A DNA stretch of 64,000 bases. Source: Candidatus Micrarchaeota archaeon (GTDB taxonomy: Archaea > Micrarchaeota > Micrarchaeia > Anstonellales > Anstonellaceae). The stretch is from NCBI GenBank assembly GCA_026413965.1, contig JAOAJY010000001.1, forward strand, positions 57,642-121,641, written 5' to 3'. Positions 23,946 to 62,692 of the stretch are shown piece by piece. How positions within the stretch are numbered: the first letter of the stretch is position 1; every line of letters starts with the position of its first letter. The translations under genes were made by a program, and so were the position numbers. The notes under the pieces were generated by a model. That model worked only from the letters and a program-made list of their open reading frames with translations. It was not told the origin of the DNA and made no database searches.

Positions 23946-24614
23946 TTAGGCAAAAAAGTCCTTCGGCTTTTCTTCTGGTTTTGTAATGCCAAGTGCTTTT
24001 TCCTTTTCGCGTATGAGCAATTCTTTTATCTGCTTTTCATAAAGCATACGGGCAAGTGTATTTTGGGTGATGTGGTATTTTGCTGCATCTGGATATTTTT
24101 TAACCAAAGATTCGTAAATCTTGCCTAAAACAAAATCTAAAATATCGGCAGACAGCTTGGAAACTCTGTCGAATGCCTCATCGCTCTTCATCGCCTGATT
24201 GAAAAGAATTTTCAACTCAACTATATAATTTGAGCTTGCTATCTTTACTATCACGTCGTTGCTCGCCCCTGAAATCTTAGCAAAATAAGCGCAAATGTTA
24301 ATCAGAGTGCAAAGCGCAGGAGGTTGCGTGCTATTTTGGTTTGCAAATAGCAGGGAATCGAACACTAAATTTGCGACATAATTTGCTGCTTGCTCAATCG
24401 TCATGTTTTGTTGTTTGCCATTCTCATTCTGATTCTTTATGGCTTGATTGTATAAATCTATAAAGTTCTGATTAGACCGAAAATAATTTTCTAAATCGGA
24501 AACAGCTCGTGAGCGATCTTGCACGGAAATGCTTTTGAGTGTTTCGGAAAGATAATTAATAAGGATAGAAATCTGCTCGTTATTTGGCGTTGGCTTCTTT
24601 GCAGGCGCAGGCAT
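23946..24614 (-). CDS. Hypothetical protein, N/Q/K-rich, compositionally atypical (low GC)
   Basis: The 222-aa ORF has no recognised motif. A hand count of 24421-24480 gives 18/60 G+C, against roughly 50-65 percent in neighbouring genes. Confidence 0.55.
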   Translation of the reverse strand: MPAPAKKPTPNNEQISILINYLSETLKSISVQDRSRAVSDLENYFRSNQNFIDLYNQAIKNQNENGKQQNMTIEQAANYVANLVFDSLLFANQNSTQPPALCTLINICAYFAKISGASNDVIVKIASSNYIVELKILFNQAMKSDEAFDRVSKLSADILDFVLGKIYESLVKKYPDAAKYHITQNTLARMLYEKQIKELLIREKEKALGITKPEEKPKDFFA

Positions 24615-27733: not shown

Positions 27734-27943
27734 TCACTCTGGCGGCGGTGGAGGGGGCGCCTCGCCATCCCCAAAATCCTCAGGCATGAGAGGCGTGGCT
27801 TCTTTTTCCTGCTGTGCGCTTTTGACCATTTTTCCTTCTGGGGGAGCTGGGGGGCGGCTGTCATCTGCCGAGTCGCTGGGCTTGCTTTGAGCGCAGCCTG
27901 CCAAAAGCAGAAAGGCAGCCAAGAAAACCAATAGCCCTTTCAT
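27734..27943 (-). CDS. Small putative lipoprotein, proline/acidic-rich
   Basis: It starts MKGLLVFLAAFLLLAGC (lipobox-like LAGC) and ends PPPPPPE. It overlaps the upstream PKD gene by 4 nt. Confidence 0.5.
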   Translation of the reverse strand: MKGLLVFLAAFLLLAGCAQSKPSDSADDSRPPAPPEGKMVKSAQQEKEATPLMPEDFGDGEAPPPPPPE

Positions 27944-30201
27944 TGAACCGCCGCCTTTTTGCTTGTTTGCTGTGCCTGTGGCACGCACACGAATACCTGG
28001 CAGCCGTTTTTGTCAATATGAGAAAAAACAGGAACAAGCCCAGGCAGGCAGGTGGCGGTTGTTTGGCATGATGCTGGATAGACCTGCACCGTCAAAGCCG
28101 CCTGCGCGCTTGCGCCCTGCTCATCATAGACCGTCATATATACAGTGTAGGCGCCAGGCGCGCTGTATGAGTGGGTGGCTGATGCAGTCTGAACCACTGC
28201 CATAGGCTTGGGCATTCTTGGATTTTCATCTCCCCATATGAAAGAATAAGTCAGCTGCCTGCCCTCTGGGTCGTATGCTGAGATTGTCCAGGTTCCTTGC
28301 TGCCCAACAGCAAGCTGTGATGGCCCTGAGACGCTGGTGATGACTGGCGGGAGATTTTGCTGGATTTGGCGCTTGACGGTTATCACACCGCTTTCAGAAA
28401 ATGGCTCTCTGGAATGCATGTGTATGCCTACTCGGATTTTGTACTGCCCTTCTGGGAAATTTGATGGTATATTCCATGCTGCCTGCCCTGCCGAAAGCGG
28501 GTTGTTTCCGCAATCTATGTTTGTGGCTGCTCCGGTATTGACATTTATTGCCTGCACGCAGGAGAGCCTGCCATTCAAATCAGAGGAAACTGACCAGGCA
28601 ATCATGTAGGTTTGGCCTGCTACGAATTCCTCGCCTCCAATCGGAGAAGACACCTTTATGCTGTAGCTTGGAGCATTCCGGTAAACCTGAACCCTGTAGG
28701 TTGAGCTGGCAGATGCCCCTTGCTCATCCACAACTGTGAATGTTATGGTGTAAGTTCCTGCTGAATTGTAGGTGTGAGAGATGGTTGAGGACTGCTCTGC
28801 TGCAGCGCTTCTTCTTGCAAGCTCAGCAGGCTCATCTCCCCAAGTGACATAATAAGTCAGCTGCCTGCCCTCTGGGTCGTATGCTGAGATTGTCCAGGTT
28901 CCTTGCTGCCCAACAGTAAGCTGTGATGGCCCTGAGACGCTGGTGATGACTGGCGGGGGATTTGGCCTGGAAGGTTGCAGATATATTAGGGCGTCATTGT
29001 ATCCGCCATCAAATTTTATGCCGTCATCTGCTTCTATCGTGAATTTGTTTCCCTTCTGCGTTATGCTGAAATAATGCGGGTTTGTGGAAAAGGCTTTTTC
29101 GTACCATCTGCCATTCCATTGGGTTTGTATGGAAAGGACAACTTCCTCTCCCTCTTTCAGATAGCCGATAGGCGTGACTCTATTGACCCAATTATTGGCG
29201 CCTGTGAATGTCCCGAGATTTTTGAAATTCGGCTTTTCTACCGCAATGACCGAACTTCCCGAGGTGTCATACCATGCAACATTTATCTCGTATTCTCCAG
29301 ACTGCGGGATTATTATTCTCTGCTGCGGGGGCTCTGGAACAGGGGCAAGAAATACAGTGACGCTTATGCTTGCAGTCTCGCTTTCGCCTGCATCATCCAC
29401 AACTTTGACGACTATCTTATAGGTTCCTGCCGAATTGTATGTGTGGGTGAATGAAGCGGTCTGTGAGGCTGGCGTGCTGGCAGAGGATCCCTGCTTATTG
29501 AACTCGTCGCCCCAAGTGACATAATAAGTCAGCTGCCTGCCCTCTGGGTCGTATGCTGAGATTGTCCAGGTCCCTTGCTGCCCAACAGCAAGCTGTGATG
29601 GCCCTGAGATTTTGGTTATCACAGGAGGGAGATTGGGCTGAGGCGGGGATGGCGGCTCGTCCTTCCCAAATCCGAGCCTGCATGATGAGGCTGCCTTTAT
29701 CCAGTAAGCTTTGCCCGGCTCAAGCGTGCTTGAGTACCTGTATGGGCTTTGGGCAGGACCGCTTGCGTAATAATGCCAGGGGCCAGAGATTATCTTGCAG
29801 TCGCCTGCATAGTCTGTGATTTCTGCCTTGTGGGGCGGCGCCCCAACAAGATTCCATCCTGAAAAAAGCTCTTTGTTCGCAAAGATCGGCGAAGCTGAAT
29901 AAGCGTACCTGCACTCCCTTGTCCCCTTTATCCAATATCCCTCTCCTGGCTTAAGAACGGCTTCTTTGATGTATCCTGACTGCGAAAGCCTCCAAGCATA
30001 TTGGGAGGCACCGCAGATAAAAGCCAGCTCTTTGACAGGCAAATCTGCTGAAACTGAAATCATGTTCCATCCGGGATAGATTTGCACCTCATAGTTTTGC
30101 GGAGCAGGGAGGGTAAGCGCTGCAGCTGCGGGAAAAATAAGCAACATCGCAACAAGAATTGCCCCAAATCTGTTGCTTTCAAGATTCGCTTTTATTGCCA
30201 T
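27940..30201 (-). CDS. Secreted multidomain surface protein: double GWN...YWIK module, three PKD-like repeats, C-terminal 4-Cys module
   Basis: The signal peptide is MAIKANLESNRFGAILVAMLLIFPAAAA. The repeat PPVIT.(I/V)SGPSQL.VGQQGTWTISAYDPEGRQLTY..(T/I)WGDE occurs three times. The C-terminal end reads CQTTATCLPGLVPVFSHIDKNGCQVFVCVP. Confidence 0.8.
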   Translation of the reverse strand: MAIKANLESNRFGAILVAMLLIFPAAAALTLPAPQNYEVQIYPGWNMISVSADLPVKELAFICGASQYAWRLSQSGYIKEAVLKPGEGYWIKGTRECRYAYSASPIFANKELFSGWNLVGAPPHKAEITDYAGDCKIISGPWHYYASGPAQSPYRYSSTLEPGKAYWIKAASSCRLGFGKDEPPSPPQPNLPPVITKISGPSQLAVGQQGTWTISAYDPEGRQLTYYVTWGDEFNKQGSSASTPASQTASFTHTYNSAGTYKIVVKVVDDAGESETASISVTVFLAPVPEPPQQRIIIPQSGEYEINVAWYDTSGSSVIAVEKPNFKNLGTFTGANNWVNRVTPIGYLKEGEEVVLSIQTQWNGRWYEKAFSTNPHYFSITQKGNKFTIEADDGIKFDGGYNDALIYLQPSRPNPPPVITSVSGPSQLTVGQQGTWTISAYDPEGRQLTYYVTWGDEPAELARRSAAAEQSSTISHTYNSAGTYTITFTVVDEQGASASSTYRVQVYRNAPSYSIKVSSPIGGEEFVAGQTYMIAWSVSSDLNGRLSCVQAINVNTGAATNIDCGNNPLSAGQAAWNIPSNFPEGQYKIRVGIHMHSREPFSESGVITVKRQIQQNLPPVITSVSGPSQLAVGQQGTWTISAYDPEGRQLTYSFIWGDENPRMPKPMAVVQTASATHSYSAPGAYTVYMTVYDEQGASAQAALTVQVYPASCQTTATCLPGLVPVFSHIDKNGCQVFVCVPQAQQTSKKAAVQ
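28245..28350. repeat. Intragenic near-identical DNA repeat, copy A (PKD-like repeat core)
   Basis: The 106 bp differ from copy B by 1 nt (aataagtcagctgcctgccctctgggtcgtatgctgagattgtccagg...). Confidence 0.9.
28839..28956. repeat. Intragenic near-identical DNA repeat, copy B
   Basis: This copy shares the same core. It also shares the upstream ccccaagtgacat extension with copy C. Confidence 0.9.
29511..29609. repeat. Intragenic near-identical DNA repeat, copy C
   Basis: This copy shares the same core with 1 mismatch and diverges after gccctgaga. Confidence 0.9.
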
Positions 30202-40845: not shown

Positions 40846-41553
40846 ATGCAGGCATCATGCAGAGGACAGGGAGCAACGGAGTATTTGGTACTTCTTGCGA
40901 TTGTCTTGATAATAGCCATGGTTGCAGTTGCCCTCCTTGGATTTTTCCCAGGCATGGCAGGAGACGCCAAGCTTGCGCAAAGCAAGGCTTATTGGCAGTC
41001 TGCAAGCCCTATTGCGATAGTGGATGGCGCTGCTTCTAGATTCTATGGAGCGCACAGTCAGATACTTCTAACTTTGCAAAACAATGGCGCCACGCCGGTT
41101 GAGCTGGTGGCTGTTGGGCCTATAAGAAGCCCTTGGACATACACCATAACGCATAATGAGTATGGGCAGATAACTAAACAAGGAAAGTATGCGTTTTTCA
41201 GCCCTGGATGGTTCAGCACCGGCTATGGACCAGATTTGGAAGGCACGTGGAGAGGATATGTTGCGCCACCAGAAGGAAATGGTTGGGATTACTATCAAGA
41301 AAAGCTGGTCATTTCTCCCGGAGAGAAAATCACAATTGGATTTTATGCATCTGCGCACGACCCTTCGCTATCAGACTCCTATCCATACACCAATCCTTGC
41401 AGTTTTGGAGAAGAAGCGGTTTCAAAATACTACGAGTTCAAGCAATTCAACATATACTATGTCTCCTACGCTGAAAATGGAGAAAAGCTTTTGAAAAGGC
41501 AGGCTGGCTCAAAACCCCTCGTCTTATCATGCACTGAGGGCGAATTTTGGTAA
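40846..41553 (+). CDS. Archaeal type IV pilin-like protein (class III signal peptide)
   Basis: The N-terminus RGQGATEYLVLLAIVLIIAMVAVALLGF fits the prepilin QGA-(T/I)EYL pattern. Confidence 0.6.
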   Translation: MQASCRGQGATEYLVLLAIVLIIAMVAVALLGFFPGMAGDAKLAQSKAYWQSASPIAIVDGAASRFYGAHSQILLTLQNNGATPVELVAVGPIRSPWTYTITHNEYGQITKQGKYAFFSPGWFSTGYGPDLEGTWRGYVAPPEGNGWDYYQEKLVISPGEKITIGFYASAHDPSLSDSYPYTNPCSFGEEAVSKYYEFKQFNIYYVSYAENGEKLLKRQAGSKPLVLSCTEGEFW

Positions 41554-41554
41554 A

Positions 41555-41722
41555 TTAGCGAAGCACAACCAGGGGGATTATTCCTGCCTCAAGCTCGCGC
41601 TTTGCGACATCAATTGCGGACTCCCCAGGCTTGACCTCCAAAAGCGGGGGAGCGCCGTAAGACAGCTGCAGGGCGCGGGCGCCAATTATCCGCGCAATCT
41701 CAAATTTGCTCAAGGAAGCCAT
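41555..41722 (-). CDS. rpoK: DNA-directed RNA polymerase subunit K (Rpo6)
   Basis: My own translation gives MASLSKFEIARIIGARALQLSYGAPPLLEVKPGESAIDVAKRELEAGIIPLVVLR (55 aa). It falls below the ORF-track cutoff. Confidence 0.85.
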   Translation of the reverse strand: MASLSKFEIARIIGARALQLSYGAPPLLEVKPGESAIDVAKRELEAGIIPLVVLR

Positions 41723-41727
41723 ATGAC

Positions 41728-42354
41728 TCACCGCTTTTTCTTGAATTCTTGGTATTCCTCAAAAGCGCTTTTCTTTCTGATGTGGGGATTATTCTTAGAA
41801 AAACCCAGTTTGTCCATTTTGGAGGAAAGCGTTTTTAACTCTTGCAGGATGGCTTGCAGAAGCTCTGCCTCGCTTTTGCTTGGCTCAGAGGGCGCTTCGC
41901 CTTTTGCAAGCTGGACTTTTTGCATGATTTCAGCAATCAATGCGTCTTTGTTGGCAATTCCTGGGATGAATGTCTCGGAAGCTATGCGGGAGGAGCCTGC
42001 GGTCTCTATCTCAATTGTGGCAAGCCCCAAAAGCCGCTCCACCACCGTCCTTTCGCTGTTGATGTCCTGTATTGTAACATAGGGGATGACGGTTGTTTTC
42101 CTGGTCAGCACGCCTTCGCGTATGATTATGTCCGACTGGCGAAGCTCGTAGGTGAAATTGCGGTAAACAAGCTCCACCCAGAGATAAAGCGGAATGGCTG
42201 CAATGGCAGCAAGCAAAATTATCGCCAACGGCAAGTCGTTTTTGTGAAGCCCGGCTACTGAGAACTCTGCCGGCAGCGTCAATGACAAGGAGAGCCCGAG
42301 CAGAGCCAGAAAAAGCACGGCTATTGCGGTTGGCAGGAACCAAATCAGCTTCAC
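41728..42354 (-). CDS. Membrane protein with a bacterial PH domain (bPH_2/YdbT-like)
   Basis: It has two N-terminal TM helices, then YELRQSDIIIREGVLTRKTTVIPYVTIQDINSERTVVERLLGLATIEIETAG. Confidence 0.7.
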   Translation of the reverse strand: MKLIWFLPTAIAVLFLALLGLSLSLTLPAEFSVAGLHKNDLPLAIILLAAIAAIPLYLWVELVYRNFTYELRQSDIIIREGVLTRKTTVIPYVTIQDINSERTVVERLLGLATIEIETAGSSRIASETFIPGIANKDALIAEIMQKVQLAKGEAPSEPSKSEAELLQAILQELKTLSSKMDKLGFSKNNPHIRKKSAFEEYQEFKKKR

Positions 42355-42393: not shown

Positions 42394-43029
42394 TCAAAAA
42401 ACCTGTCCGCTCTCCTGGAAATCCTCATAAGCCAAGTCGTTGAACGCGTATATTATCTTGCCTTTCAGCGAGTCCATGGCTTGCTGCCCTGAGGCAAACT
42501 CCTGGATTGCCTCTTTTGAGTGGTCTGCCACAAAGCTTTTCCCTCGGAATTGGAAAAGGACGTAGGAATTCCGTGTGTCGGTGACGAAAACCTTGGCGTT
42601 TTCAGAGCCCAAAGCCCGCAGGATAGAGCAGAGGAAGATGGATTTGTCAATCTCGTCGCCTGCCATAAGCTCCTTAATCTCTGAGAAAGAAAGCCAGAAA
42701 GAAACAGGGGCAGAGACGGTCTTGAAGGCTGAAACGTGCTTGAAAGCCATCTTGGCGCAATCCAGGAAATGCTCAGAATAAACGTATGGATGGAAGCTTT
42801 CTGTTATGGCTTCTTTCAGCTCAACAACACAAGCGTCCTTGGGATTCACCATGCTTTTCAAATCGGAGACCGATTTGGTCTCGGACTCCTCTATTTTTTC
42901 CCGGTATCGCTCAATTATGAGCCGGCAAAGCCTAAGCTTGAGCTCATCGTCAGAGGGCGGAGAGGAAGCTGGAGGGCTGGATGGCGGGCTTTTTGGCTTT
43001 TTTGCCAAAAGCCTAAGCAAATCTTCCAT
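42394..43029 (-). CDS. Hypothetical protein, weakly transglutaminase-like
   Basis: GDEIDKSIFLCSILRALGSENAKVFV resembles the Cys-containing core of transglutaminase-like proteins. This similarity is unverified. Confidence 0.4.
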   Translation of the reverse strand: MEDLLRLLAKKPKSPPSSPPASSPPSDDELKLRLCRLIIERYREKIEESETKSVSDLKSMVNPKDACVVELKEAITESFHPYVYSEHFLDCAKMAFKHVSAFKTVSAPVSFWLSFSEIKELMAGDEIDKSIFLCSILRALGSENAKVFVTDTRNSYVLFQFRGKSFVADHSKEAIQEFASGQQAMDSLKGKIIYAFNDLAYEDFQESGQVF

Positions 43030-43089: not shown

Positions 43090-45294
43090 TCAGACATAGT
43101 CTGAGCATACCGGCGCGAATGGATTTCCGCAGTAAAACACAGCCGCAGCCTGATTGTTTGTGTAGTCAATTTCCTGTATGCTGGGGTTCCTTGGCAGGTT
43201 GGCTTCTGCAACCACCCTTTTCAGCCCTGCTGACGAGCATATGCAGGTGAATGACAATGGGGAGGAAGTTTGCCCGGCGTTGAGCGGAGGGGTTTGCCGC
43301 ACCTGGTCCTCGCCGTTTGCGGTGCAGTTTGCCCCAAACAAGGTGGTGCTGGACGGTACCGACACGTTCTGGTTCCCCTTGTTTGCGACACTGAGGCTTA
43401 TGCTGAGGCTTCCGCCAATCGGAGTTATGATGCGCGATGGAGACATGCCTGATATTACGTAGTCAGGGCCTATTCCTTGGACCACCAAGACGGGATTGGC
43501 GCAGGAAAGTGATGGGAAGCGGGCATCCTCGCTTGATGCGTTGATTCTTCCTGATTGGGGAACTGGCGCGTTTTGTGTAGAGAAATTGGTGGTGGGGCGA
43601 ATCATGCTAGGAGTCCGCTCAGGATTGAGCCTTCCGCCAATTATGTTGGTTGACCAAATCAGCCGCGGGCAGCCCACAAGCCCAGGAACCCCGGTTTTGG
43701 TGCAGTTTGCCTCAACCAAAGCCCAGTCATTTGGAAGAAACAGGTTGGAATGGTTCACCAGCCCGCACACCATTCGGTCAGGACGGGGGGAGAACAGAAG
43801 CAGGACCTCGCATGATGCTGAGCACTCCTCCGCATTCGCGCAGGATATTGCTATTTTTCCTGGCTGCACTGATGGCGGCTCGGCGGAAGGAGAGGTGAAA
43901 AGCGAAAAGACTGGCGAGGGAGCAGCAGGCGTGGAGCTGGGATTGAGAGATGCGCCTGTCAGGTTGGTTGTCCAGTTGAGAGCAGGGCACAAGTCAAGAT
44001 CGCCATTTTTGATGCATGAGGCTTTCACTTGCGCAGTCTCATTTGGGAAGAAAACAGGCCCGTGATTGACAAGCTCGCATGAAAGAGCGTATGCGCTTGC
44101 CTCAGACACCCTGACCTTCACTGCAAGCGCCGTGCTGTTGTTGCAGTCCTTCAAGCCAGTGTTTGTGCAGTCAGGAGAAGTGGTTTTTGACCGGATGTCC
44201 AGAACCAAGTCATACGTTCCAGGAGGAGTGCCCTGCGGCACAAAAACCGTGCCGTTGATTTGCCTGCTTGAGCCTGCAGGAACCACAAAAGGCAGGCTGG
44301 GCGAGGATATTTGAAGGTTGGAGAAAGTGCTCCCTGCAAGCGAGATTGAGCTTACTGAAAGGTTCCTGTTCGCCCCGTTGTTTAGGGTGAAGCTGAATGA
44401 GACTGCTTTGCCTGGGGTTGTGGATACGGTGGGCGCAGGCGAGGACGGATAAAGCGAGCAGGAGAATGGATTTTCCACTCTGAGGTAGGCTGTTTCGCTG
44501 GAGAATTCCGGGCTGAAACTGTCATTTATTACTGCATAGACTGTAGAGATGCGATTGAGGCTCGGATTGACTATATTCCTGATGGGGGCTACGCACCTGT
44601 TTATGTCTATCACGCCTCTTACTGCGTGCTGGCCAAGAGGCAACACCAAATCATTTTTGGAAAATGAGCCTGTGAAAGGCCGGGAGTATTCGGTGTTGCC
44701 CACAATGATTTTGCCGGTTGCGTCGCAAATCATGCCTATGAAAGCCTGGTATTTTTGCCCGTTGTTGTAAAATCCATAGGGATTGCCGCCATTTCCCATG
44801 TGCTGGCGGTATTTTATGCCGACCTCTTTTTCATAAGAAGAATAATCCGTTATGCCTATGGAGGCAAGGTAGTTTTGCCATGTTTGATTCGGGCTCCATT
44901 CCCATTTTCTTGGAACTCCTGAATCGGCAAATTGTCTCAAGCTTTGCACTTGCTGGGTGGTGGACCAGCGGATGGGGTAAATGCCTCCAGGCTGGTTGTA
45001 GGCGGAAATCGGATCGTTTTGGGAAAGGGCTCCGCTTGCTGTCCCTCCTTCAAAGATGCTCGGGTTTATCCGCCAGCCTCCAGAGGAAGTTAGATTTATT
45101 TGGGTTGGGCTTCCTGCGCAGACGCTTTCAGGAACCGAGATGGTTGGAAGGGCATCCATATCGCTTTTCAGATAAGTATTGTTCTCCGGGCTTTGTGTTT
45201 TCCAATGCATAGCGAATTGCGCAGAAGCGGAGAAGACTGCTTGTGAAAGCAAAGCGCAGGCAAGGCAAAGAAAAAAAATTCTGCTCTCCCTCAT
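43090..45294 (-). CDS. Large secreted surface/adhesin-like protein (internal Cys-containing repeats, CARDB-like C-terminal region)
   Basis: The signal peptide is MRESRIFFLCLACALLSQAVFSASA. The module C.LVNH..(F/L)F.PN..A.V.A.C.K.G...CP.L.W(T/S)TN..G..LNP is duplicated. The tail reads EIDYTNNQAAAVFYC. The start was set at the ATG at 45294. Confidence 0.65.
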   Translation of the reverse strand: MRESRIFFLCLACALLSQAVFSASAQFAMHWKTQSPENNTYLKSDMDALPTISVPESVCAGSPTQINLTSSGGWRINPSIFEGGTASGALSQNDPISAYNQPGGIYPIRWSTTQQVQSLRQFADSGVPRKWEWSPNQTWQNYLASIGITDYSSYEKEVGIKYRQHMGNGGNPYGFYNNGQKYQAFIGMICDATGKIIVGNTEYSRPFTGSFSKNDLVLPLGQHAVRGVIDINRCVAPIRNIVNPSLNRISTVYAVINDSFSPEFSSETAYLRVENPFSCSLYPSSPAPTVSTTPGKAVSFSFTLNNGANRNLSVSSISLAGSTFSNLQISSPSLPFVVPAGSSRQINGTVFVPQGTPPGTYDLVLDIRSKTTSPDCTNTGLKDCNNSTALAVKVRVSEASAYALSCELVNHGPVFFPNETAQVKASCIKNGDLDLCPALNWTTNLTGASLNPSSTPAAPSPVFSLFTSPSAEPPSVQPGKIAISCANAEECSASCEVLLLFSPRPDRMVCGLVNHSNLFLPNDWALVEANCTKTGVPGLVGCPRLIWSTNIIGGRLNPERTPSMIRPTTNFSTQNAPVPQSGRINASSEDARFPSLSCANPVLVVQGIGPDYVISGMSPSRIITPIGGSLSISLSVANKGNQNVSVPSSTTLFGANCTANGEDQVRQTPPLNAGQTSSPLSFTCICSSAGLKRVVAEANLPRNPSIQEIDYTNNQAAAVFYCGNPFAPVCSDYV

Positions 45295-45302
45295 GAAACC
45301 CA

Positions 45303-48300
45303 CTAGCGCTGCGGGTAAGACCGTGTGTAACTCGCCCCGCCTCCAAGAACTAAAGGAATTGGAATTCCTACTGTGACATAGTATTGGGTAGAATTCCCTT
45401 TCCCAAAACTTACACTAGGAGTAATTTTGAACTCCCATACATTTATGTCTGCTCCTACTCCGGCCTGCAAATGGAAATCATTCAAATTAGATCCCCCAAA
45501 CTGCGCGCTGGTAGTAACATATGGGTTAACCGGGCCTTGTTTATGCTGAATAGTTCCTAGTAGCGTGGCAGTTGGGGGAAGGGGCATATTGAGAGCTTGG
45601 TTCAATCCTGCTTGGACTATCACATCTAGCTTGTCATAAATCTCAAATCTTTTTGTGGCATTAAGATTCAAAGACACTGTGGATGATTGGTAGCTGTATG
45701 ATTCATTTGTGGCGGGCGAAGTGGAAGAATAACTTGTACGATCAACACTTAACCCAACACCAACTAGAAGGTTTTGCGGAACGTTGAACCACATCAGAGC
45801 CGCCTTTCTAGCATACCGTTCAAAATTGGTTTCCTGCCCTAAAAAGACCACCTTGCCGGTATTTACATCTATGCCGACATTAAGGAGGATGTTGTTGTTT
45901 GTATCAACTTGGTAGATTCCTCCGGTGAACTCAACGTGGTGGCTGCGGACTGAAAATTTTATGTAATTGGAAAGTTCTTTAAAGTTATTTAGCTGTATGG
46001 TCTGCTGACCAAACTGCGAATTTTTGAAAAGCTCTGAATCTTCCCTGATACGCTTCCGCGCTTCTTGGAACTTGCCTTGCTCCAAGAGCGAAAAGTATTG
46101 TGTTAGCTTGTCAATGCTACCATCAAATGCGTTAAGCCAGGCCTCATCGTTTTTCACACGAATAAAAACATCATGTATCATGTTCTTAAATTTATCATCT
46201 GGCAGTTTGTTCTTATTCATTAATTCATAGTAATAATTTATCGCTTTGTTGAGGTCGGTTATATTTTCAAATCCAAAAGTGTCTAACAGGCTTGAAGAAT
46301 AACCCACAATGCCGTTGAACTTTTGAAAATTGATAGACAGTTGGTAATCAAACTGTGGTTGGATGCGTGGAATCTCAAGGGGGACAACATTCTGGATATC
46401 ATCTTTTGGAAATTCAATTGTTGGAACTGTTTTCAACGTAAGCTGCTTTTTCGTGCTCCAGACCGGCTTTGTTGCCAAGCCTTCACTGGTTTCTGCATAA
46501 GCAATGAATCTGCCATCCAAGATAGGCGTATTGGCAAACAGCTCTGATTTCACAGACCACTTCTCAGGTTCTTTTCCATTTTTATTGACGAGCAAAAGGT
46601 GCCCAGGATCAACTCGGAAAACTTGCTTTTCGCCATCATTGCGCACAAATTTGACATATTCTGAAGGGACCTCATAAAGCTTGTCCTCCTCGCCGGAATG
46701 CAGCTTGCCGTAAAAGAAAACCTTAAGCTTGTCTTTTTCATGGTTGAATTGGAGCGGAATGCCGTTTAAGCTGTATTGCACTGAAAGCTCCACAGTGTTT
46801 CTCTCAGGCTGAGATATCTCTATATCCAAAGCATATTTACCTTCAATGGAAGAGCTGATTGACCTGCCGCCTCGGGCAGTGAGGGCAACGACAAAAGCGT
46901 TTTGGTTTTTCTCATCGCGCATGCCTTCCTTGGAGGCGTCTTTTCTCATGAAGTAATTTGACAGTTTTGAGATGCTATTTTCATCTGCTTTCATTGAATA
47001 CCTGCCTGTTTGCTGGTTGTATAAGACCACGTCATTGAGCTTGCTATAGCACGATACCGCGTCTAGATAGCCCTCCTTTTTCAAATTTTCCAAATCGTGC
47101 ATAAAGTTGTTGAAGTTGTCGGCTGCCTCCTGCTTGTTGAATCCGTAGCGCTTTGATAGGAGATCTTCAAAAGACTTGAATCCGGATATTTTGTTTGCCT
47201 TCAAAAACTTATCAAAAGCTGCCCTTTGGCTGCTGCTGAGGGAGCTTGAATTTGGAAGGTTCTCTTGGAAAAATTGGACTTTTGCCCTGGTTTCATATTT
47301 TATGAAATCTTTGCCCATTTCTATTAATTTTCCATTCACCTCTTGCAGATAACTTTCGCATTTGCTTGCCCTTTTGAGAGCCAGCTGGTAGTTTTTCTCA
47401 GCCTGGTCCAAAAATTCGCTTAGATTCTTGCCATTATAAATCAGCTCCATTGTTGCACTGCCAGTGAACGTGAAAACTATGTTACTTTGGTTGCATTTTT
47501 TCACAAAATCCTGCCCTTCTTCACTTGCAAAAAAAATGGCAAGCTCGTCCTGGTTTGAGTTTCTGTTTCTACCTACAATATCCTGGTTTGAGTTTATGTT
47601 TCTCTTTACAATATTGTCGTAATCGTATCCCATGGACAAAGCAATCTTCTTGACTTGCCCCCTTACTGCGAACTTGGGGCTATATTCCGCATCAATTTCT
47701 TCTGAGGTGAACTTCCTGCTGTACTTCAATTGGTGTAACATTTGCGACTTTGACTTGCCTTCTGTTGTTTCTTTTTGGTGGTAAGGTAATAGGTTGTTGA
47801 TGGCGTCCTGGATCAACATTCTGCCGGCGGCGTCTTGGTTGGTTTGCAACTCTGCAGAAATTTTGTAGGGAATTGATGATGTTGTGCCATATTCAGATGT
47901 TGTAGAAGTGGGATGTTTGGTCGGAACATGCACCTTTTCATCTATTTCAGCACGTCTTGGGCGAAAGTAGAGAGATATTGCATGCTTGCTGTTTCCAAGA
48001 TTGACATATTGGTTCTGTGAGTTGTCTATTATTGTCTCAACCATCTTGCCAAACTCCTTGTAGGCTGAAAAAGAGTATTCCCCACCCTCTCCGAAAGTGC
48101 CATTTGGATTGATCAGGTATTGCGCAAGAACCTGGTATTTGTTTTGCTTGACATAATCCAGAATTTCTTTTTTCCCTTTCAGTTCTTTCAGCTTTTCTTC
48201 GTATGCGATTATGGAAAAACTATAATTAGGGTCTGAAAGAAGAGAACGTATGAAATAGCCGAGATTTTCCTTTTTATTCATGCCAACTGAAACCATTTCG

Positions 48301-48707
48301 CCTTCCGTGAGCCTTCTGTTTTCTGCTAATTTGTTTTGCGCTTCAGCCAGCTTTTTTACTGACTCATGCCCGAGCTTGTACAATTCTACGCATTTTATGT
48401 AGTTTTTGGCTTTTTGAAGCTCAACTTCATCAGGCTCACCAAGCTGCGCCTGCAAGCTGATGCCTTTGCCGCCAAGCCAATCCTGCCAAGCCTTGCAGAA
48501 AGCAAGAGCGCGCCCGTAATCCTTGTCTGCCTTTTTTGAGCCCAAGCCTGAGATGAAGCTTTGAAGAGAAACGGAAAAATTTTTGAGGCTGGCGGCATCG
48601 TTTTGTTTTCCTTGCCTATGCAAATTGTAGAACTCGTCCTGCAAAGATGACAGCTGCGCTGCAATAGAGGTGCTTTGATCCTGCTGCGCCCTGAACGCTT
48701 GACCCAT
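45303..48707 (-). CDS. Giant orphan protein (1134 aa), low GC, no N-terminal signal peptide, beta-strand-rich C-terminal region
   Basis: It is the longest uninterrupted ORF in the window. A hand count of 46201-46260 gives 19/60 G+C, while the 5' end (48400-48707) is GC-normal. The C-terminal 200 aa or so show alternating hydrophobic/polar strands (WEFKITPSVSF, QYYVTVGIPI). Confidence 0.7.
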   Translation of the reverse strand: MGQAFRAQQDQSTSIAAQLSSLQDEFYNLHRQGKQNDAASLKNFSVSLQSFISGLGSKKADKDYGRALAFCKAWQDWLGGKGISLQAQLGEPDEVELQKAKNYIKCVELYKLGHESVKKLAEAQNKLAENRRLTEGEMVSVGMNKKENLGYFIRSLLSDPNYSFSIIAYEEKLKELKGKKEILDYVKQNKYQVLAQYLINPNGTFGEGGEYSFSAYKEFGKMVETIIDNSQNQYVNLGNSKHAISLYFRPRRAEIDEKVHVPTKHPTSTTSEYGTTSSIPYKISAELQTNQDAAGRMLIQDAINNLLPYHQKETTEGKSKSQMLHQLKYSRKFTSEEIDAEYSPKFAVRGQVKKIALSMGYDYDNIVKRNINSNQDIVGRNRNSNQDELAIFFASEEGQDFVKKCNQSNIVFTFTGSATMELIYNGKNLSEFLDQAEKNYQLALKRASKCESYLQEVNGKLIEMGKDFIKYETRAKVQFFQENLPNSSSLSSSQRAAFDKFLKANKISGFKSFEDLLSKRYGFNKQEAADNFNNFMHDLENLKKEGYLDAVSCYSKLNDVVLYNQQTGRYSMKADENSISKLSNYFMRKDASKEGMRDEKNQNAFVVALTARGGRSISSSIEGKYALDIEISQPERNTVELSVQYSLNGIPLQFNHEKDKLKVFFYGKLHSGEEDKLYEVPSEYVKFVRNDGEKQVFRVDPGHLLLVNKNGKEPEKWSVKSELFANTPILDGRFIAYAETSEGLATKPVWSTKKQLTLKTVPTIEFPKDDIQNVVPLEIPRIQPQFDYQLSINFQKFNGIVGYSSSLLDTFGFENITDLNKAINYYYELMNKNKLPDDKFKNMIHDVFIRVKNDEAWLNAFDGSIDKLTQYFSLLEQGKFQEARKRIREDSELFKNSQFGQQTIQLNNFKELSNYIKFSVRSHHVEFTGGIYQVDTNNNILLNVGIDVNTGKVVFLGQETNFERYARKAALMWFNVPQNLLVGVGLSVDRTSYSSTSPATNESYSYQSSTVSLNLNATKRFEIYDKLDVIVQAGLNQALNMPLPPTATLLGTIQHKQGPVNPYVTTSAQFGGSNLNDFHLQAGVGADINVWEFKITPSVSFGKGNSTQYYVTVGIPIPLVLGGGASYTRSYPQR
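47548..47613. repeat. 33-bp tandem duplication inside the giant ORF
   Basis: tcctggtttgagtttctgtttctacctacaata is followed by tcctggtttgagtttatgtttctctttacaata (4 mismatches). The copies encode KRNINSNQDIV and GRNRNSNQDEL. Confidence 0.85.
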
Positions 48708-48744
48708 CGGCTCACCTATTTTTTTGCATTTTTTCTATTTATAA

Positions 48745-49953
48745 CTATTTGCTTGCTTCCAATATCTTGACCCCTGGCAGCTCCTCGCCTGAGAGGTATT
48801 CTATCAGGGCTTTGCCTGCCAAGGAGACGTATCCGAGCCTCTTGCGGCTTATCTTGAACTTGTCCAAAGCTGAAAGAGTGTGCCCCCCGCCTACGACCGA
48901 GAAGGCTTTGCTTGACTGGACTGCTTGAAGTATCTTTTTTGTCCCGTATTCTGACTCTGGCTTCTCATAGACTCCTGCTGGGCCATTCACAAGCACGGTT
49001 TTTGCCGAAAGGATTTTCCTTGCGTAAAGCTGCGCAGTCTTTCTCCCTATATCCACTATAAGCCCGTCTGAAGGAAGCTTTGAGATGGCAAGCTCTTTCC
49101 TTTTTCCTGATATTGACACAGCGACATCCTGAGGAAAGAGTATCTTCCTTTTGTGTTTGGCAAGAAGCTCCCGCGCGGCAGGCAGATATTCTGTCGCCTT
49201 GGACTCTTTGAGAAAATCAAGCGTTTTGCCAAGCTCCTTTCCAGAGGCAAGGATGAAAAGCTCGCCCAAAACACCGCAGGTGAGGGCGAAGTCCAATTTG
49301 CCTTCTGAAAGCCATTTTTGCATTATGCCTATGGAATCATCCGGCTTTGCCCCGCCAAATACGAAGACTGCCGGCTTTTTCGGGCTTTTGAGCTTGGAGA
49401 GGGCTTCAAGCTCCTTTTGCATCACCCTGCCTGCCACAACAGGCTTTCTGCGGAAGCCGACTATGGATGCCTGCGCCCGATGGGCGGCCGAGAAGGCATC
49501 CAGCACAAACACGTCGCACAATGGGGAAAGCTCTTTGACTATTGTCGCCTGCTCGTTTTCCTCGATTGTTTTGTGCTTTGTTTCATCATCCAAGAACCGC
49601 ACATTCTCAAGGAGCAGGATTTCGCCTGGCTTGAGCCCCATTATCGCCTCCTTTGCTTTGCTGCCGCACACATCACCCACGAATTTCACCGGCTTTCCTG
49701 CCTCCTCTTGAAGAAGGGAGGCGTGCTGCGACAGCGATATGCAGTCATAATCGCCTTTCCTTCCCTGGTGCGCAAGGACCACCACCTTTGCGCCCTTCTC
49801 AGAAAGCTCCTTTATGGTCTGGGCGTGCCCAGCTATCCTGTCGGATTTCTCTACCCTCAGCGTTTTTTCATCCACCGGGCAATTCAGGTCTGCCCTGACA
49901 AAAGCGGTCTTTCCTGAAAAGTCAAAGGTGTCCAAAGTCTGCATAAGCCTCAC
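48745..49953 (-). CDS. pgk: Phosphoglycerate kinase (archaeal type)
   Basis: The 402-aa ORF has VRADLNCPV, VLAHQGR, FVFGGAKPDD, and VVGGGHT. Confidence 0.95.
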   Translation of the reverse strand: MRLMQTLDTFDFSGKTAFVRADLNCPVDEKTLRVEKSDRIAGHAQTIKELSEKGAKVVVLAHQGRKGDYDCISLSQHASLLQEEAGKPVKFVGDVCGSKAKEAIMGLKPGEILLLENVRFLDDETKHKTIEENEQATIVKELSPLCDVFVLDAFSAAHRAQASIVGFRRKPVVAGRVMQKELEALSKLKSPKKPAVFVFGGAKPDDSIGIMQKWLSEGKLDFALTCGVLGELFILASGKELGKTLDFLKESKATEYLPAARELLAKHKRKILFPQDVAVSISGKRKELAISKLPSDGLIVDIGRKTAQLYARKILSAKTVLVNGPAGVYEKPESEYGTKKILQAVQSSKAFSVVGGGHTLSALDKFKISRKRLGYVSLAGKALIEYLSGEELPGVKILEASK

Positions 49954-51473: not shown

Positions 51474-51965
51474 ATGCTGCAGAATCTTCTTTACCCGCGC
51501 CAGGTGGTTTTGGTCACGGCTTCCACAAGCGAAAAAAGCAACGTGACTGCGGTGGAGTGGATTATGCCTGTTGCGGAAAAGCCGCCATTGGTGGCGCTCT
51601 CCCTTGCGAACAACTCGCTAACCCTTGACCTGATTTGCACCTCTATGGAATTTGTGGTCTCCATACCTTCTGAGAGGCTGAAGGAAGCCGCAATCCTTTG
51701 CGGAAGCACGTCCGGCAAATACATAGACAAGTTTGAGGAAGCCCGCTTGACCCAGGTGAGGGCGAAAAAGGTCTCTGCGCCCCTTGTCCTTGAGGCTATA
51801 GCCAACTTGGAGTGCAAGGTCCTGTCTTACAACACTTCGGGCGACCACACTGTTGTTGTGGGAGAGGTTGTGGAGGTCCATTTGCCCAAGCAGAATGGCG
51901 AGCAGGAGCCTTTGCTGTTCAACCATGGCGGAAAAAGGCTTTTTGGCTTCAAAAAAGAGGGCTAA
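51474..51965 (+). CDS. Flavin reductase-like FMN-binding domain protein
   Basis: It reads PRQVVLVTAS...NVTAVEWIMPVAEKPPLVALSL...GDHTVVVGEVVEVH. Confidence 0.75.
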   Translation: MLQNLLYPRQVVLVTASTSEKSNVTAVEWIMPVAEKPPLVALSLANNSLTLDLICTSMEFVVSIPSERLKEAAILCGSTSGKYIDKFEEARLTQVRAKKVSAPLVLEAIANLECKVLSYNTSGDHTVVVGEVVEVHLPKQNGEQEPLLFNHGGKRLFGFKKEG

Positions 51966-53233
51966 TTTGCCAGCCTTTCTCCATAGCCGCACTCAAACCA
52001 ATCATAGCCTATGCTCCATTCCTTGTATGGGCCGTTGATGCAGCAGGGTATGAACTGGCACTGGCTTTTGATTACTGACAGGTTCACAAACCCCTCTTTG
52101 TTGGGGTTTGGGTTGGCGCAGTCTCCTCCGTAGTAATACTGCATGTGCGCCCTCACAAAAGTCCCGCCGTCTTGATATTGGTTGCAGTAGGCATCAGGGT
52201 AGAAAGGCGCGCTTGAGCGGAAGACTGCTACCCTGCGGAAAACCGGGAACGTCTGCTGGCTTGAGGAATTTGTGGAGTTTGTTGCGTTGGTTGTGGAGCT
52301 TGTTGCTCCGGCTGAAAGGTTTGCGGTGCCATTTGCAGGAGAGGTTGGGGGCAGTGGCTGGCTTTTGTTTGATGGGCTTTTGGCTGGCGGGGATGAGTTG
52401 TTGGCTGGCTGGAATGGAGGCGGCTGAGCAGATGGGGAAGAGGGGCTTTGGTTGGCTTGGCTCTGATTGGCTTCTGATTTTGGCGCCTCTTTTTGAGCAG
52501 GAGGCATGGGCTGGCTTTCTTTCTCAGAGGATTTGTTGGTCTGGTTGGCTCTTCTTGCTGTGGAATTGGCAGGGGGCTTGGGCTTTATTTCAGGGGAATT
52601 GTTTGTCTTGTTCAAGGATGATGGAGAGGCATTTTTCTGGCCAGGCTCCTGGATAGGCGCGCTTATGCCTTCTTTCGGGCTTTGTTGCATGCTGCCTTGC
52701 TCTTGCTCGCTTTGGCCCTGCGGAGAAAGGAAGGCAAAATAGGCTGCAGCTGCCATCAGCAGGAAGACTGCCAGGGCCATTGCCGCAGCTGGGATTGGAA
52801 AAGGAGGCTTTGCGGCTTTTTGCGGAGGGCTTGCCTGGCTTTGGGCAGCAGGAGCCAGCGGCTGTGGCTGAGGAGGATTGGGCTGGGGGGAAAGCGGCGC
52901 TTGAGGTGAAGGCTGGGGGGTTGGAGAAGCTGGCTGCTGGGGAGAGGAGCCCAAAGCAGAGCTGCCCAAAATGCTTGCCGGAGGAATTGGCGATGGAGAA
53001 GAAGGCGCAGCGGATGGCTGGGATTGCGCTGGCTGGGCAGGCGGCTGCTGAGGCTCAGGAGGCTCTTGGGAAGACAAAAGCTGGCTTTGGATTTCTGAGG
53101 CTCTCTTGAAAGCCCAATCCACTTTCTCTTTTTTCCAGCCTACCGAAAGAAGAGCGTTCCTTATCTGCTCGTCGTTGCGGTTTTTTTGCCTTGACTTGAT
53201 TATGAAATTCACAAGCTCCTCTTCGCCGCCCAT
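51962..53233 (-). CDS. Hypothetical single-pass membrane protein with a long P/Q/S/A-rich region and a Cys-containing C-terminal domain
   Basis: It has a small N-terminal folded domain, a TM helix FPIPAAAMALAVFLLMAAAAYFAF, and a C-terminal domain with 6 Cys. Confidence 0.5.
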   Translation of the reverse strand: MGGEEELVNFIIKSRQKNRNDEQIRNALLSVGWKKEKVDWAFKRASEIQSQLLSSQEPPEPQQPPAQPAQSQPSAAPSSPSPIPPASILGSSALGSSPQQPASPTPQPSPQAPLSPQPNPPQPQPLAPAAQSQASPPQKAAKPPFPIPAAAMALAVFLLMAAAAYFAFLSPQGQSEQEQGSMQQSPKEGISAPIQEPGQKNASPSSLNKTNNSPEIKPKPPANSTARRANQTNKSSEKESQPMPPAQKEAPKSEANQSQANQSPSSPSAQPPPFQPANNSSPPAKSPSNKSQPLPPTSPANGTANLSAGATSSTTNATNSTNSSSQQTFPVFRRVAVFRSSAPFYPDAYCNQYQDGGTFVRAHMQYYYGGDCANPNPNKEGFVNLSVIKSQCQFIPCCINGPYKEWSIGYDWFECGYGERLAN

Positions 53234-53291
53234 AGACACACAATCCAAAATCTCATGTGCTGCTTATAAAAGTAATTGGAGAAGGCAGGCA

Positions 53292-61903: not shown

Positions 61904-62692
61904 ATGCCTTCTTTATTTTGCAAAGAACACAAAAAAGCGCAAAGCGGAACGGAACAATTAGGAATATTGGCGGTCGTTTTGATAATTGGGCTGGTGGGGA
62001 TATCAGTTATTTGGCAATCCGCTAGCTCAGCTTCAGGCATCTCAGAAAGCTCATCTGAAATCTACTGGAAAGAGATGCGCCCTGTGAGGGTTCTTGAGGC
62101 AGGGCTTGCGGCTGATTCTGAAATATTTTTTGTTGTTGAAAATTCTGGGCCTGACCCGATAACTATAAACAGGATAGGCATAGGGGAAGCATCTGCGTCT
62201 TTAAGAGAGTATGGATCAGACATGCCTTTAACAAGCATTTATCTTGCCCCAGGAGAAATTAAGAGAGTGGTTGCAAGCTCCTTTGGGTCTTTTGATTGCA
62301 TGGTTGGCAAAAAAAAGGACGTGGCTCTTTCCATAGGCTACAGGACACAATACGGAGACGCCAGGGTTCTCAAAGGCGAGAAGAGCTTAGCCATACGCTG
62401 CAATATGAATAGCGGCGCTTATGCGAGCTCCAACCAAACCTCTTGCGCTTCTCAAGGGCAGGGCTGCGGCTCAGGCATAAGCTGCTGTGAAGGTTTAGCC
62501 TGCATCGACAATACGTGCGAATACTGCAGAGGAGAAGGCAAGGACTGCAAAGATAGCAGTTGGTGTTGCGAAGGTTTAGCTTGCATGGAAGGTTATTGCC
62601 AATACTGCAGAGGAGAAGGAGGAGAATGTGCGGATAATAGCTGGTGCTGCGAAGGTTTAGCTTGCATGGAAGGTTATTGCAAGTTTTATTGA
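61904..62692 (+). CDS. Type IV pilin-like protein with three C-terminal knottin-like six-cysteine repeats
   Basis: It has the class III signal-like KAQSGTEQLGILAVVLIIGLVGISVIW. The C-terminus carries three copies of C-x6-C-x5-CC-EGLAC-x4-C. Confidence 0.6.
   Translation: MPSLFCKEHKKAQSGTEQLGILAVVLIIGLVGISVIWQSASSASGISESSSEIYWKEMRPVRVLEAGLAADSEIFFVVENSGPDPITINRIGIGEASASLREYGSDMPLTSIYLAPGEIKRVVASSFGSFDCMVGKKKDVALSIGYRTQYGDARVLKGEKSLAIRCNMNSGAYASSNQTSCASQGQGCGSGISCCEGLACIDNTCEYCRGEGKDCKDSSWCCEGLACMEGYCQYCRGEGGECADNSWCCEGLACMEGYCKFY
62444..62689 (+). repeat. Three tandem units of about 81 bp encoding the six-cysteine module
   Basis: Units 2 and 3 share long identical DNA stretches (tgcgaaggtttagcttgcatggaaggttattgc; atactgcagaggagaagg). 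Confidence 0.85.

Follow-up and report, generated by a model that had tools for sequence, protein, structure and literature searches.

A small, fast-evolving Micrarchaeota protein family encoded next to a secreted CARDB-like protein: a candidate envelope or host-interface gene string

The 64,000-nt stretch analyzed here, from contig JAOAJY010000001.1 of a Candidatus Micrarchaeota archaeon (the window; coordinates are counted from its first letter), carries two closely spaced minus-strand genes, one for a 1134-aa protein and one, downstream of it, for a secreted, CARDB-like partner (Table 1). An earlier note on this DNA, made from the letters alone, had proposed that the pair was a horizontally acquired host-contact or membrane-attack module and that the larger protein was an orphan. 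We found instead that the gene pair is vertically inherited and is not foreign DNA. As judged from alignments and gene order, the 1134-aa protein is one of a small family that evolves very fast and keeps a fixed place on the chromosome. With confidence somewhat short of even, we favor the reading that the pair belongs to a Micrarchaeota-specific, vertically inherited, operon-like gene string of the envelope or host interface; the pair itself probably functions at the cell surface or host interface.

A Micrarchaeota protein family and its locus

The orphan label did not survive database searching. Exhaustive HMMER searching of 1.84 billion representatives recovered 12 relatives at E <= 1e-3, with lengths of 295-1153 aa, and five matches at E <= 1e-30, the query itself included. 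All relatives with a named source came from metagenome-assembled genomes of Candidatus Micrarchaeota, Micrarchaeia, or Anstonellaceae, and no source-named homolog outside Micrarchaeota was found among these representatives. A word-index homology search returned the protein itself alone and a family profile added one fragment; pattern scans of GTDB genomes, JGI metagenomes, and IMG/VR gave two contigs already in the set, or nothing.

Rather than being absent from the locus in relatives, as expected of an acquired island, the family gene occupied the same neighborhood in all eight related contigs fetched (L001-L005 and L007-L009), with gene order judged as far as each contig reaches. The order in relatives is flavin reductase, a 260-265-aa protein, phosphoglycerate kinase (PGK), sometimes two divergent genes, and the family gene, followed by a CARDB gene, a gene for a 211-229-aa protein, sometimes a bacterial-PH (bPH_2) domain gene, Rpb6, RNase HII, and Nre. 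PGK precedes the family gene in L002, L003, L004, L005, L007, and L009. On the minus strand of the window, the string reads PGK, family gene, partner, 211-aa gene, bPH_2 gene, and RpoK, with RNase HII and Nre beyond. The window RpoK is 83-84% identical to the Rpb6 of L001 and L002, and a bPH_2 gene is present in L001 and was not called in L002, L007, or L008. In the data at hand, this string has so far been seen in Micrarchaeota only and would be specific to them.

Signs of mobility were likewise missing. We detected no tRNA in the 64-kb window, no repeats flanking the gene pair beyond chance-sized matches, and no mobile-element gene near the pair, whose neighbors are housekeeping genes. PADLOC, PHROGs, IMG/VR, phage tblastn, and Foldseek searches of the viral BFVD gave no viral, phage, or defense-system match.

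Base composition had been the starting point for the idea of transfer. The hand counts of G+C content behind it were exact (0.317 at 46201-46260 and 0.65 at 49441-49500), as was the description of positions 48400-48707 as normal (measured 0.50), and the two 60-nt windows are extremes of a noisy distribution (60-nt SD 0.066). The dip itself is real, the gene being the lowest-GC 3.4-kb stretch of the window, but at the gene level it is modest (0.425 vs a window mean of 0.505), and the first 100 codons are normal at 0.51. The G+C content expected from the amino-acid content of the protein and the codon choice of the window is 0.458, and therefore about 4.7 of the 8 points of deficit come from amino-acid composition, which is rich in K/N/S/E/Q/F/I/Y; the remaining ~3.3 points come from synonymous sites. 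G+C at third codon positions (GC3) was 0.472 vs 0.560 expected, a deficit of 0.088 (z ~ -1.9) that is equaled by three other ORFs of the same window, one pilin-like, one Cys-rich, and one a small orphan.

The further proposal of a foreign segment fused behind a native 5' end failed in the homolog alignments, which contain no junction: relatives P0006, P0004, and P0005 align without interruption from residue ~13 onward, past the GC step near residue 100. The N-terminal family fragment in the closest relative (L003) is itself low in G+C, at 0.383 vs 0.446 for its contig. The dip recurs in two of three relatives, the L003 fragment and, more mildly, L002 (0.545 vs 0.58-0.60), and is missing from the third. 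In this sub-clade, low G+C content goes with the gene family as such and does not mark a recent insertion.

Within the neighborhood, divergence is greatest in the family protein, and the partner comes next. Compared with L002, the family protein was 26% identical over 243 residues and the partner 32%, vs 50-83% for neighboring genes; compared with L003, the family protein was 52% identical and neighboring genes 50-80%, with the partner lying beyond the contig. Such rapid divergence of both proteins would fit surface exposure. A host-contact or surface role for the pair is plausible.

The family is also marked by its N-terminus. MFLFQ opens nine of the 11 complete family N-termini (once as MLLFQ), a count that takes in two N-termini with reassigned start positions; family genes start at L002:8001, L003:8001, L005:7217, L008:5076, L007 ~3677, and L009 ~5280, and at 48707 in the window. 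The motif is encoded by differing synonymous codons and with ATG, GTG, and TTG as start codons, and therefore selection acts on the peptide. We considered MFLFQ as a general sorting signal and rejected this idea; in the fetched loci it was found at the start of family genes alone. A search of a literature library found no mention of the motif.

Protein modules and the beta-rich tail

Family alignment revealed a common N-terminal domain, a conserved core, and a beta-sandwich-like domain, followed by one of two unrelated C-terminal modules. As described earlier, the window protein has no signal peptide, transmembrane (TM) helix, or nucleotide-binding motif: its top 19-residue Kyte-Doolittle (KD) mean was 1.26, at residue 970, its N-terminus is not hydrophobic, and a motif scan found no Walker A, HExxH, or CxxC motif. 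Searches of Pfam, NCBIfam (E up to 0.1), PADLOC, and PHROGs gave no match for this protein or its partner, and PDB sequence searches with the single protein, a core profile, and a full-family profile also gave none. A full-length AlphaFold2 model (13-sequence alignment) had a mean pLDDT of 63.9; residues 12-750 scored mostly 70-94 and formed a helical bundle, alpha/beta units, and a beta sandwich at 616-753, and the tail scored 25-47. Foldseek with this model found nothing meaningful in the PDB (best E 0.05, probability 0.10) and nothing significant in BFVD (best E 0.018), with probabilities of at most 0.16 across both. As modeled, the N-terminal two-thirds are predicted with confidence and have no detectable relative of known function.

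The N-terminal domain is 52% identical to that of P0006, and alignments with P0004 and P0005 extend to residues 762-782. A duplication inside the gene encodes an Asn-rich 11-residue repeat insert (IVKRNINSNQD/IVGRNRNSNQD), which has low pLDDT and is absent from most relatives. The core, with its motifs GQxF, GSAxxE, NxxLAxxRA, FFQ(D/E), and GGMRxE, is the sole region common to all 11 relatives extending this far, and it had no match in PDB or Pfam. An OmpA-like core (PF00691), suggested by the OmpA/MotB look of an NxxLAxxRAxxxxYL motif, was rejected because comparison of the core alignment with a verified OmpA alignment gave an hhalign probability of 8%, over 19 columns at the NxxLxxRA helix only; PF00691 was matched by one of 11 family members (E 0.031).

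The type-1 C-terminal module consists of a helical part, which includes a (Q/N)G(K/Q)F(Q/I)(E/D)A motif, and the beta-rich tail. It is present in the window protein and, with significant matches, in P0007, P0015, and P0005; P0008, P0013, and P0014 probably carry it as well. Residues from 857 on are conserved with P0007 (35% identity, E 2e-49). The amphipathic strands that had first drawn attention to the tail are there, with FHLQAGVGADI, WEFKITPSVSF, and QYYVTVGIPI at residues 1078-1088, 1091-1101, and 1108-1117, respectively. The strongest beta-type hydrophobic moment of the whole protein falls at residues ~900-1134, and the tail, rich in Gly, Ser, Asn, and Thr, alternates strictly, with hydrophobic residues on one face over ~200 residues.

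A separate tail model (residues 800-1134, 7-sequence alignment) placed a helical sub-domain before 10-12 long antiparallel strands in a beta meander; across the full-length and tail models, the beta-rich part had pLDDT of 25-70. With this low-confidence model as query, the top 50 Foldseek matches in the PDB were nearly all transmembrane barrels, including FapF, the BrkA autotransporter beta domain, KdgM, OmpG, designed barrels, OmpT/U/W, and TamA (E 0.01-0.3; query TM-scores of the leading matches 0.28-0.31). The likeness to membrane beta-barrels suggested earlier stands as a resemblance in pattern, model, and Foldseek matches, but it did not extend to a significant match. Because the tail model is so low in confidence, we regard the tail, with low confidence, as resembling a barrel and do not classify it as one. 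The Sec signal peptide of outer-membrane barrels was missing, and relatives begin with MFLFQ and continue with polar sequence. An aromatic C-terminal beta-signal was also lacking: the window protein ends in ...GGGASYTRSYPQR, the ends of relatives vary, and the sole ...SYHFW ending belongs to a stand-alone protein of L008.

That stand-alone protein comes from a second type of locus. All three type-2 loci have an extra gene between the family and CARDB genes, encoding a protein of 539-621 aa. These extra proteins have no signal peptide, contain a helical part with a motif resembling that of the type-1 module, and end in a G/N/S-rich amphipathic beta region; the L008 copy starts with MFVFQ. This arrangement suggests that type-1 proteins have the beta module built in and that type-2 loci encode it apart; this would be a Rosetta-stone-style argument for its joint action with the family protein. 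The C-terminal module of the family protein is exchangeable.

The partner gene follows closely. Its ATG lies 8 nt from the TAG stop of the 1134-aa gene, the spacing already given in the earlier note, and both ORFs were judged real; in orthologous loci, 0-11 nt separate the CARDB gene from the gene before it, which is either the family gene or the extra gene. A TATA-like box and a Shine-Dalgarno-like motif precede the 1134-aa gene, with TTTATAA(A/G) and GGTG counterparts ahead of orthologs in L003, L004, and other loci, and we infer that the box is used as the promoter of the 1134-aa gene.

The partner has the signal-peptide-like hydrophobic N-terminus that had been recognized by eye, with an n/h/c layout kept in orthologs. 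At 706 aa, the NCBI annotation N3F07_00595 falls 31 residues short of the 737-aa ORF (window 45201-45294) and therefore lacks this ortholog-conserved signal peptide; a start at ATG 45294 or GTG 45303 seems more likely than the annotated one. The two Cys modules are indeed duplicates (40% identical, E 5e-19), and both are conserved in P0003. The protein contains 3.1% Cys and 17 N-x-S/T sequons, vs 0-2 sequons in most window proteins, and has no TM or PGF-CTERM-type anchor.

The CARDB-like character of the partner's tail held in part. Pfam CARDB (PF07705) gave no match in the window partner at E <= 1, but residues 605-725 can be aligned (E 0.001 and 0.009) with a stretch of P0003 in which a Pfam CARDB repeat lies, and orthologs have two to five CARDB domains (E 1.5e-22 in P0003 and 5e-35 in a 1050-aa protein of L002). 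Because of this alignment, membership of the window partner in the CARDB family is likely, transitively and via P0003 only. After the CARDB-like domain, the C-terminus is conserved as ...C(S/A)xY(F)V. CARDB surface proteins of archaea and bacteria are similar to the partner in its signal peptide, many sequons, and Ig-like C-terminal domain; the partner differs in its missing Pfam match, lineage-specific Cys modules, ...CxxYV end, and absence of a TM or PGF-CTERM anchor.

The third gene encodes the best-conserved component of the string, a 211-aa protein with 50-71% identity in five loci that is present wherever contigs extend far enough. C134, H170, and D198 do not vary among five orthologs, and the protein carries a GDEIDKSIxLCS (GDxxDxSIxLCSxL) motif; spacing suggests that the three residues might form a Cys-His-Asp triad. 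All three 211-aa orthologs searched gave weak matches to the CEP76 peptidase-like family PF24656 that, at E 1e-3 to 5e-3, stayed short of the Pfam cut-off. In the PDB, there was a weak match (E 0.35) to a chain named 'Coiled-coil lobo-like protein', which we take to have a transglutaminase-like core. The protein may have a transglutaminase or papain-like fold and may be a cysteine protease or transglutaminase acting on its neighbors; it resembles transglutaminase-like and CEP76-like enzymes in its Cys/His/Asp residues and motif, whereas its matches stay below curated thresholds.

Alternative readings of the gene pair

In the arrangement that we favor, the family protein, secreted CARDB protein, 211-aa Cys-His-Asp protein, sometimes the bPH membrane protein, and RpoK would be transcribed from their own TATA-type promoter, with the downstream gene translationally coupled, so that the proteins would be made together and act together. 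The CARDB protein would be the outward-facing, adhesin-like subunit and the large protein its membrane-proximal partner. At the envelope or where the cell touches its host, the beta-rich tail might act as a membrane-associated anchor or conduit of porin-like or sheet-like form, and the MFLFQ N-terminus is a candidate recognition tag for export of the signal-less large protein. We think it improbable that the type-1 module truly inserts into a membrane as a beta-barrel or beta-sheet, exported through an unrecognized route marked by MFLFQ and acting with the CARDB protein as an autotransporter- or two-partner-like anchor or pore at the host contact site, and that it serves as a separate subunit in type-2 loci; to our knowledge, a membrane-inserting beta-barrel in an archaeon would be the first such case.

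Several observations weigh against the envelope reading. No family member has a signal peptide or TM helix, and the window copy, which begins with MGQAF, is one of two that lack MFLFQ (the other is P0008, with MPPILQ). The 1134-aa protein has 10 N-x-S/T sequons vs 11 expected, and this lack of enrichment means that sequons give no positive sign of an extracellular location. The tail model has a mean pLDDT of only 48.9, none of its Foldseek matches reaches E 0.001, and soluble sandwiches and solenoids, too, contain amphipathic strands. For the stand-alone vs the fused beta modules, hhalign gave a probability of 0.4%, which does not establish homology. On the other side, several cross-pairs between them beat all or nearly all shuffles (p 0.003-0.017) and type-2-tail controls did not, but the test is lenient because shuffling destroys the alternating strand pattern, and the similarity is only suggestive. 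We know of no outer membrane, BAM machinery, or other barrel-insertion machinery in such archaea, and there is no obvious membrane in Micrarchaeota for a classical barrel. One membrane and an S-layer are reported for a cultivated Micrarchaeon (bioRxiv 10.1101/2021.04.28.441871).

The closest known systems resemble the pair in some respects and differ in others. Like bacterial type V secretion proteins (the BrkA autotransporter, TpsB/TpsA) and FapF, the window protein combines a large N-terminal passenger-like part with a ~200-residue C-terminal beta meander and has a tightly coupled neighbor gene for a secreted adhesin-like protein; FapF and BrkA are the top Foldseek matches of the tail model. 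Unlike them, it has no Sec signal, POTRA domain, terminal aromatic beta-signal, or sequence homology, the matches are non-significant and come from a low-confidence model, and it comes from an archaeon for which a single membrane and an S-layer are reported. Sulfolobales SlaA/SlaB and Micrarchaeum harzensis SLP_Mh offer a second parallel, an adjacent envelope-associated gene pair in which one protein possibly anchors the other. The 1134-aa protein has neither the signal peptide nor the C-terminal TM helix of SlaB-type anchors. Neither protein of the pair matched TIGR01564 or TIGR01567 in NCBIfam, which should include these TIGRFAM models, at E up to 0.1. These are the S-layer families reported in SLP_Mh, and in Micrarchaeota, according to the proposal of the same paper, anchoring would fall to a separate subunit (10.1101/2021.04.28.441871).

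A different reading, which we consider possible but rather unlikely, keeps the 1134-aa protein in the cytoplasm as a scaffold. Its tail would then be a soluble sandwich, solenoid, or oligomerization domain, and adjacency to the CARDB gene would reflect only co-expression or a chaperone or assembly role at the inner face of the membrane. This would account for the missing signal peptide and TM helix, for sequons that are not enriched as they are in the partner and a 428-aa neighbor, and for the ordinary globular helical and alpha/beta domains modeled in the N-terminal 750 residues; the 211-aa product of the next gene likewise lacks a signal peptide, and the barrel look depends on a model of pLDDT 49. 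It fits less well with a G/S/N/T-rich, strictly alternating tail that keeps one hydrophobic face over ~200 residues and whose Foldseek matches are almost only membrane barrels. Divergence as fast as that of the secreted partner and a very low Cys content (0.4% vs 1-3% in most neighbors) also argue against a cytoplasmic protein.

Quite unlikely, in our view, is a vertically inherited system for attacking host membranes, in which the tail would form a pore in the membrane of a wall-less host, the CARDB protein would mediate attachment, and the whole would act as a conduit for metabolite uptake. The barrel-like tail, the adhesin-like and glycosylation-prone partner, the rapid evolution of both proteins, and the restriction of named relatives to Micrarchaeota, a DPANN lineage, are consistent with it. 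This lineage is described as host-dependent (PMC8975820). However, there is no export signal, and the protein shows no likeness to known pore-forming toxin families, with gasdermin and leukotoxin matches being non-significant. A monomeric meander of 10-14 strands recalls porins and not oligomeric beta pore-forming toxins.

The transfer model of the earlier note, in which a native 5' end would have been joined to a recently acquired low-GC segment from a host, virus, or other DPANN archaeon, and a membrane-attack or adhesion module gained with it, is very improbable: the lowest-GC stretch in the window (0.425), the GC3 shortfall of 0.088, and a GC-normal start of 100 codons (0.51) speak for it, but the shared locus and gene order in eight contigs, alignments that cross the supposed junction, a low-GC N-terminal fragment in the closest relative, an amino-acid origin for about half of the dip, the absence of a tRNA, flanking repeat, mobile-element gene, or viral, phage, or defense match, and the lack of any source-named homolog outside Micrarchaeota all speak against it.

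DPANN archaea are described as needing host contact, and their contact proteins are mostly 'hypothetical' genes. Here, an apparent orphan has become a defined family with a fixed address, an N-terminal tag, swappable C-terminal modules, a secreted CARDB partner that is obligate, and a conserved Cys-His-Asp neighbor, which makes it a candidate envelope or host-interface system for study in cultivated Micrarchaeota. If the tail does insert into a membrane, this would challenge the view that transmembrane beta-barrels are bacterial or organellar only; if it does not, the gene is still a fast-evolving, lineage-specific one whose low G+C content mimics horizontal transfer.

Other features of the window

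The features discussed above are listed with their coordinates in Table 1.

Table 1. Coordinates of the gene pair, its protein modules, and associated features (window positions unless a contig is named)
Feature	Position	Strand	Basis or detail
Gene for 1134-aa family protein	45303-48707	-	ORF; NCBI N3F07_00600, 'hypothetical protein'
N-terminal domain, residues ~12-250	47958-48674	-	Helical bundle, then small alpha/beta unit; AlphaFold pLDDT mostly 70-94
Tandem 33-nt duplication, 88% identical	47548-47613	-	Repeat search; inside the 1134-aa gene
Conserved family core, residues ~325-638	46794-47735	-	pLDDT 80-92; alignments
All-beta sandwich-like domain, residues ~616-753	46449-46862	-	AlphaFold strands, pLDDT ~70-89
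Helical sub-domain of type-1 C-terminal module, residues ~804-921	45945-46298	-	Helices in AlphaFold models
Amphipathic beta-rich tail, residues ~930-1134	45306-45920	-	~10-14 strands, G/N/S turns; porin/autotransporter-barrel look
Secreted partner gene	43090-45303	-	737 aa from GTG; 734 aa from ATG at 45294
Sec-type signal peptide of partner, MRESRIFFLCLACALLSQAVFSASA then Q	45220-45294	-	Hydropathy, KD 2.03
Two duplicated Cys modules of partner, residues 407-498 and 511-601 (737-aa numbering)	43501-44085	-	
CARDB-like C-terminal domain of partner, residues ~605-725	43129-43491	-	Alignment with P0003
TATA-like box TTATAAATA	48736-48744	-	Read directly; between PGK stop codon and start of 1134-aa gene
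GGTGA Shine-Dalgarno-like motif	48712-48716	-	Downstream of TATA-like box, before 1134-aa gene
PGK, upstream synteny anchor	48745-49953	-	Pfam E 4e-108
211-aa cytoplasmic protein, third gene of string	42394-43029	-	ORF; no signal peptide
bPH_2 domain membrane protein, fourth gene of string	41728-42354	-	Pfam E 2.5e-18
RpoK (Rpb6), RNA polymerase subunit K, end of same-strand string	41555-41731	-	ORF
Extra genes of type-2 loci	L005:10426-12105, L007:6548-8413, L008:8177-9796		Stand-alone beta-rich proteins

Close to the string, a pilin-like protein (40846-41553, plus strand; GC3 0.449) with a class III signal peptide (E 4e-4) lies between RNase HII and RpoK, which are directly adjacent, with no pilin-like gene between them, in L002, L007, and L008. 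On the other side of the gene pair, a 428-aa protein (51962-53248, minus strand) has no Pfam match and contains 17 N-x-S/T sequons (4 per 100 residues vs 4.9 expected); its L003 ortholog is 56% identical over the C-terminal half, and it is probably a heavily glycosylated surface protein. A 753-aa PKD-domain protein (27940-30201, minus strand) has zero N-x-S/T sequons vs 5.6 expected from composition.

Two further ORFs stand out by composition. The lowest G+C content of the window belongs to a 222-aa ORF (23946-24614, minus strand; 0.383, GC3 0.395) with no Pfam or NCBIfam match. The most atypical codon usage is that of a 262-aa protein (61904-62692, plus strand), whose GC3 is 0.445 vs 0.611 expected; it contains 8% Cys and gives weak knottin-type matches (Toxin_12, Dickkopf_N), which is unusual for an archaeon.

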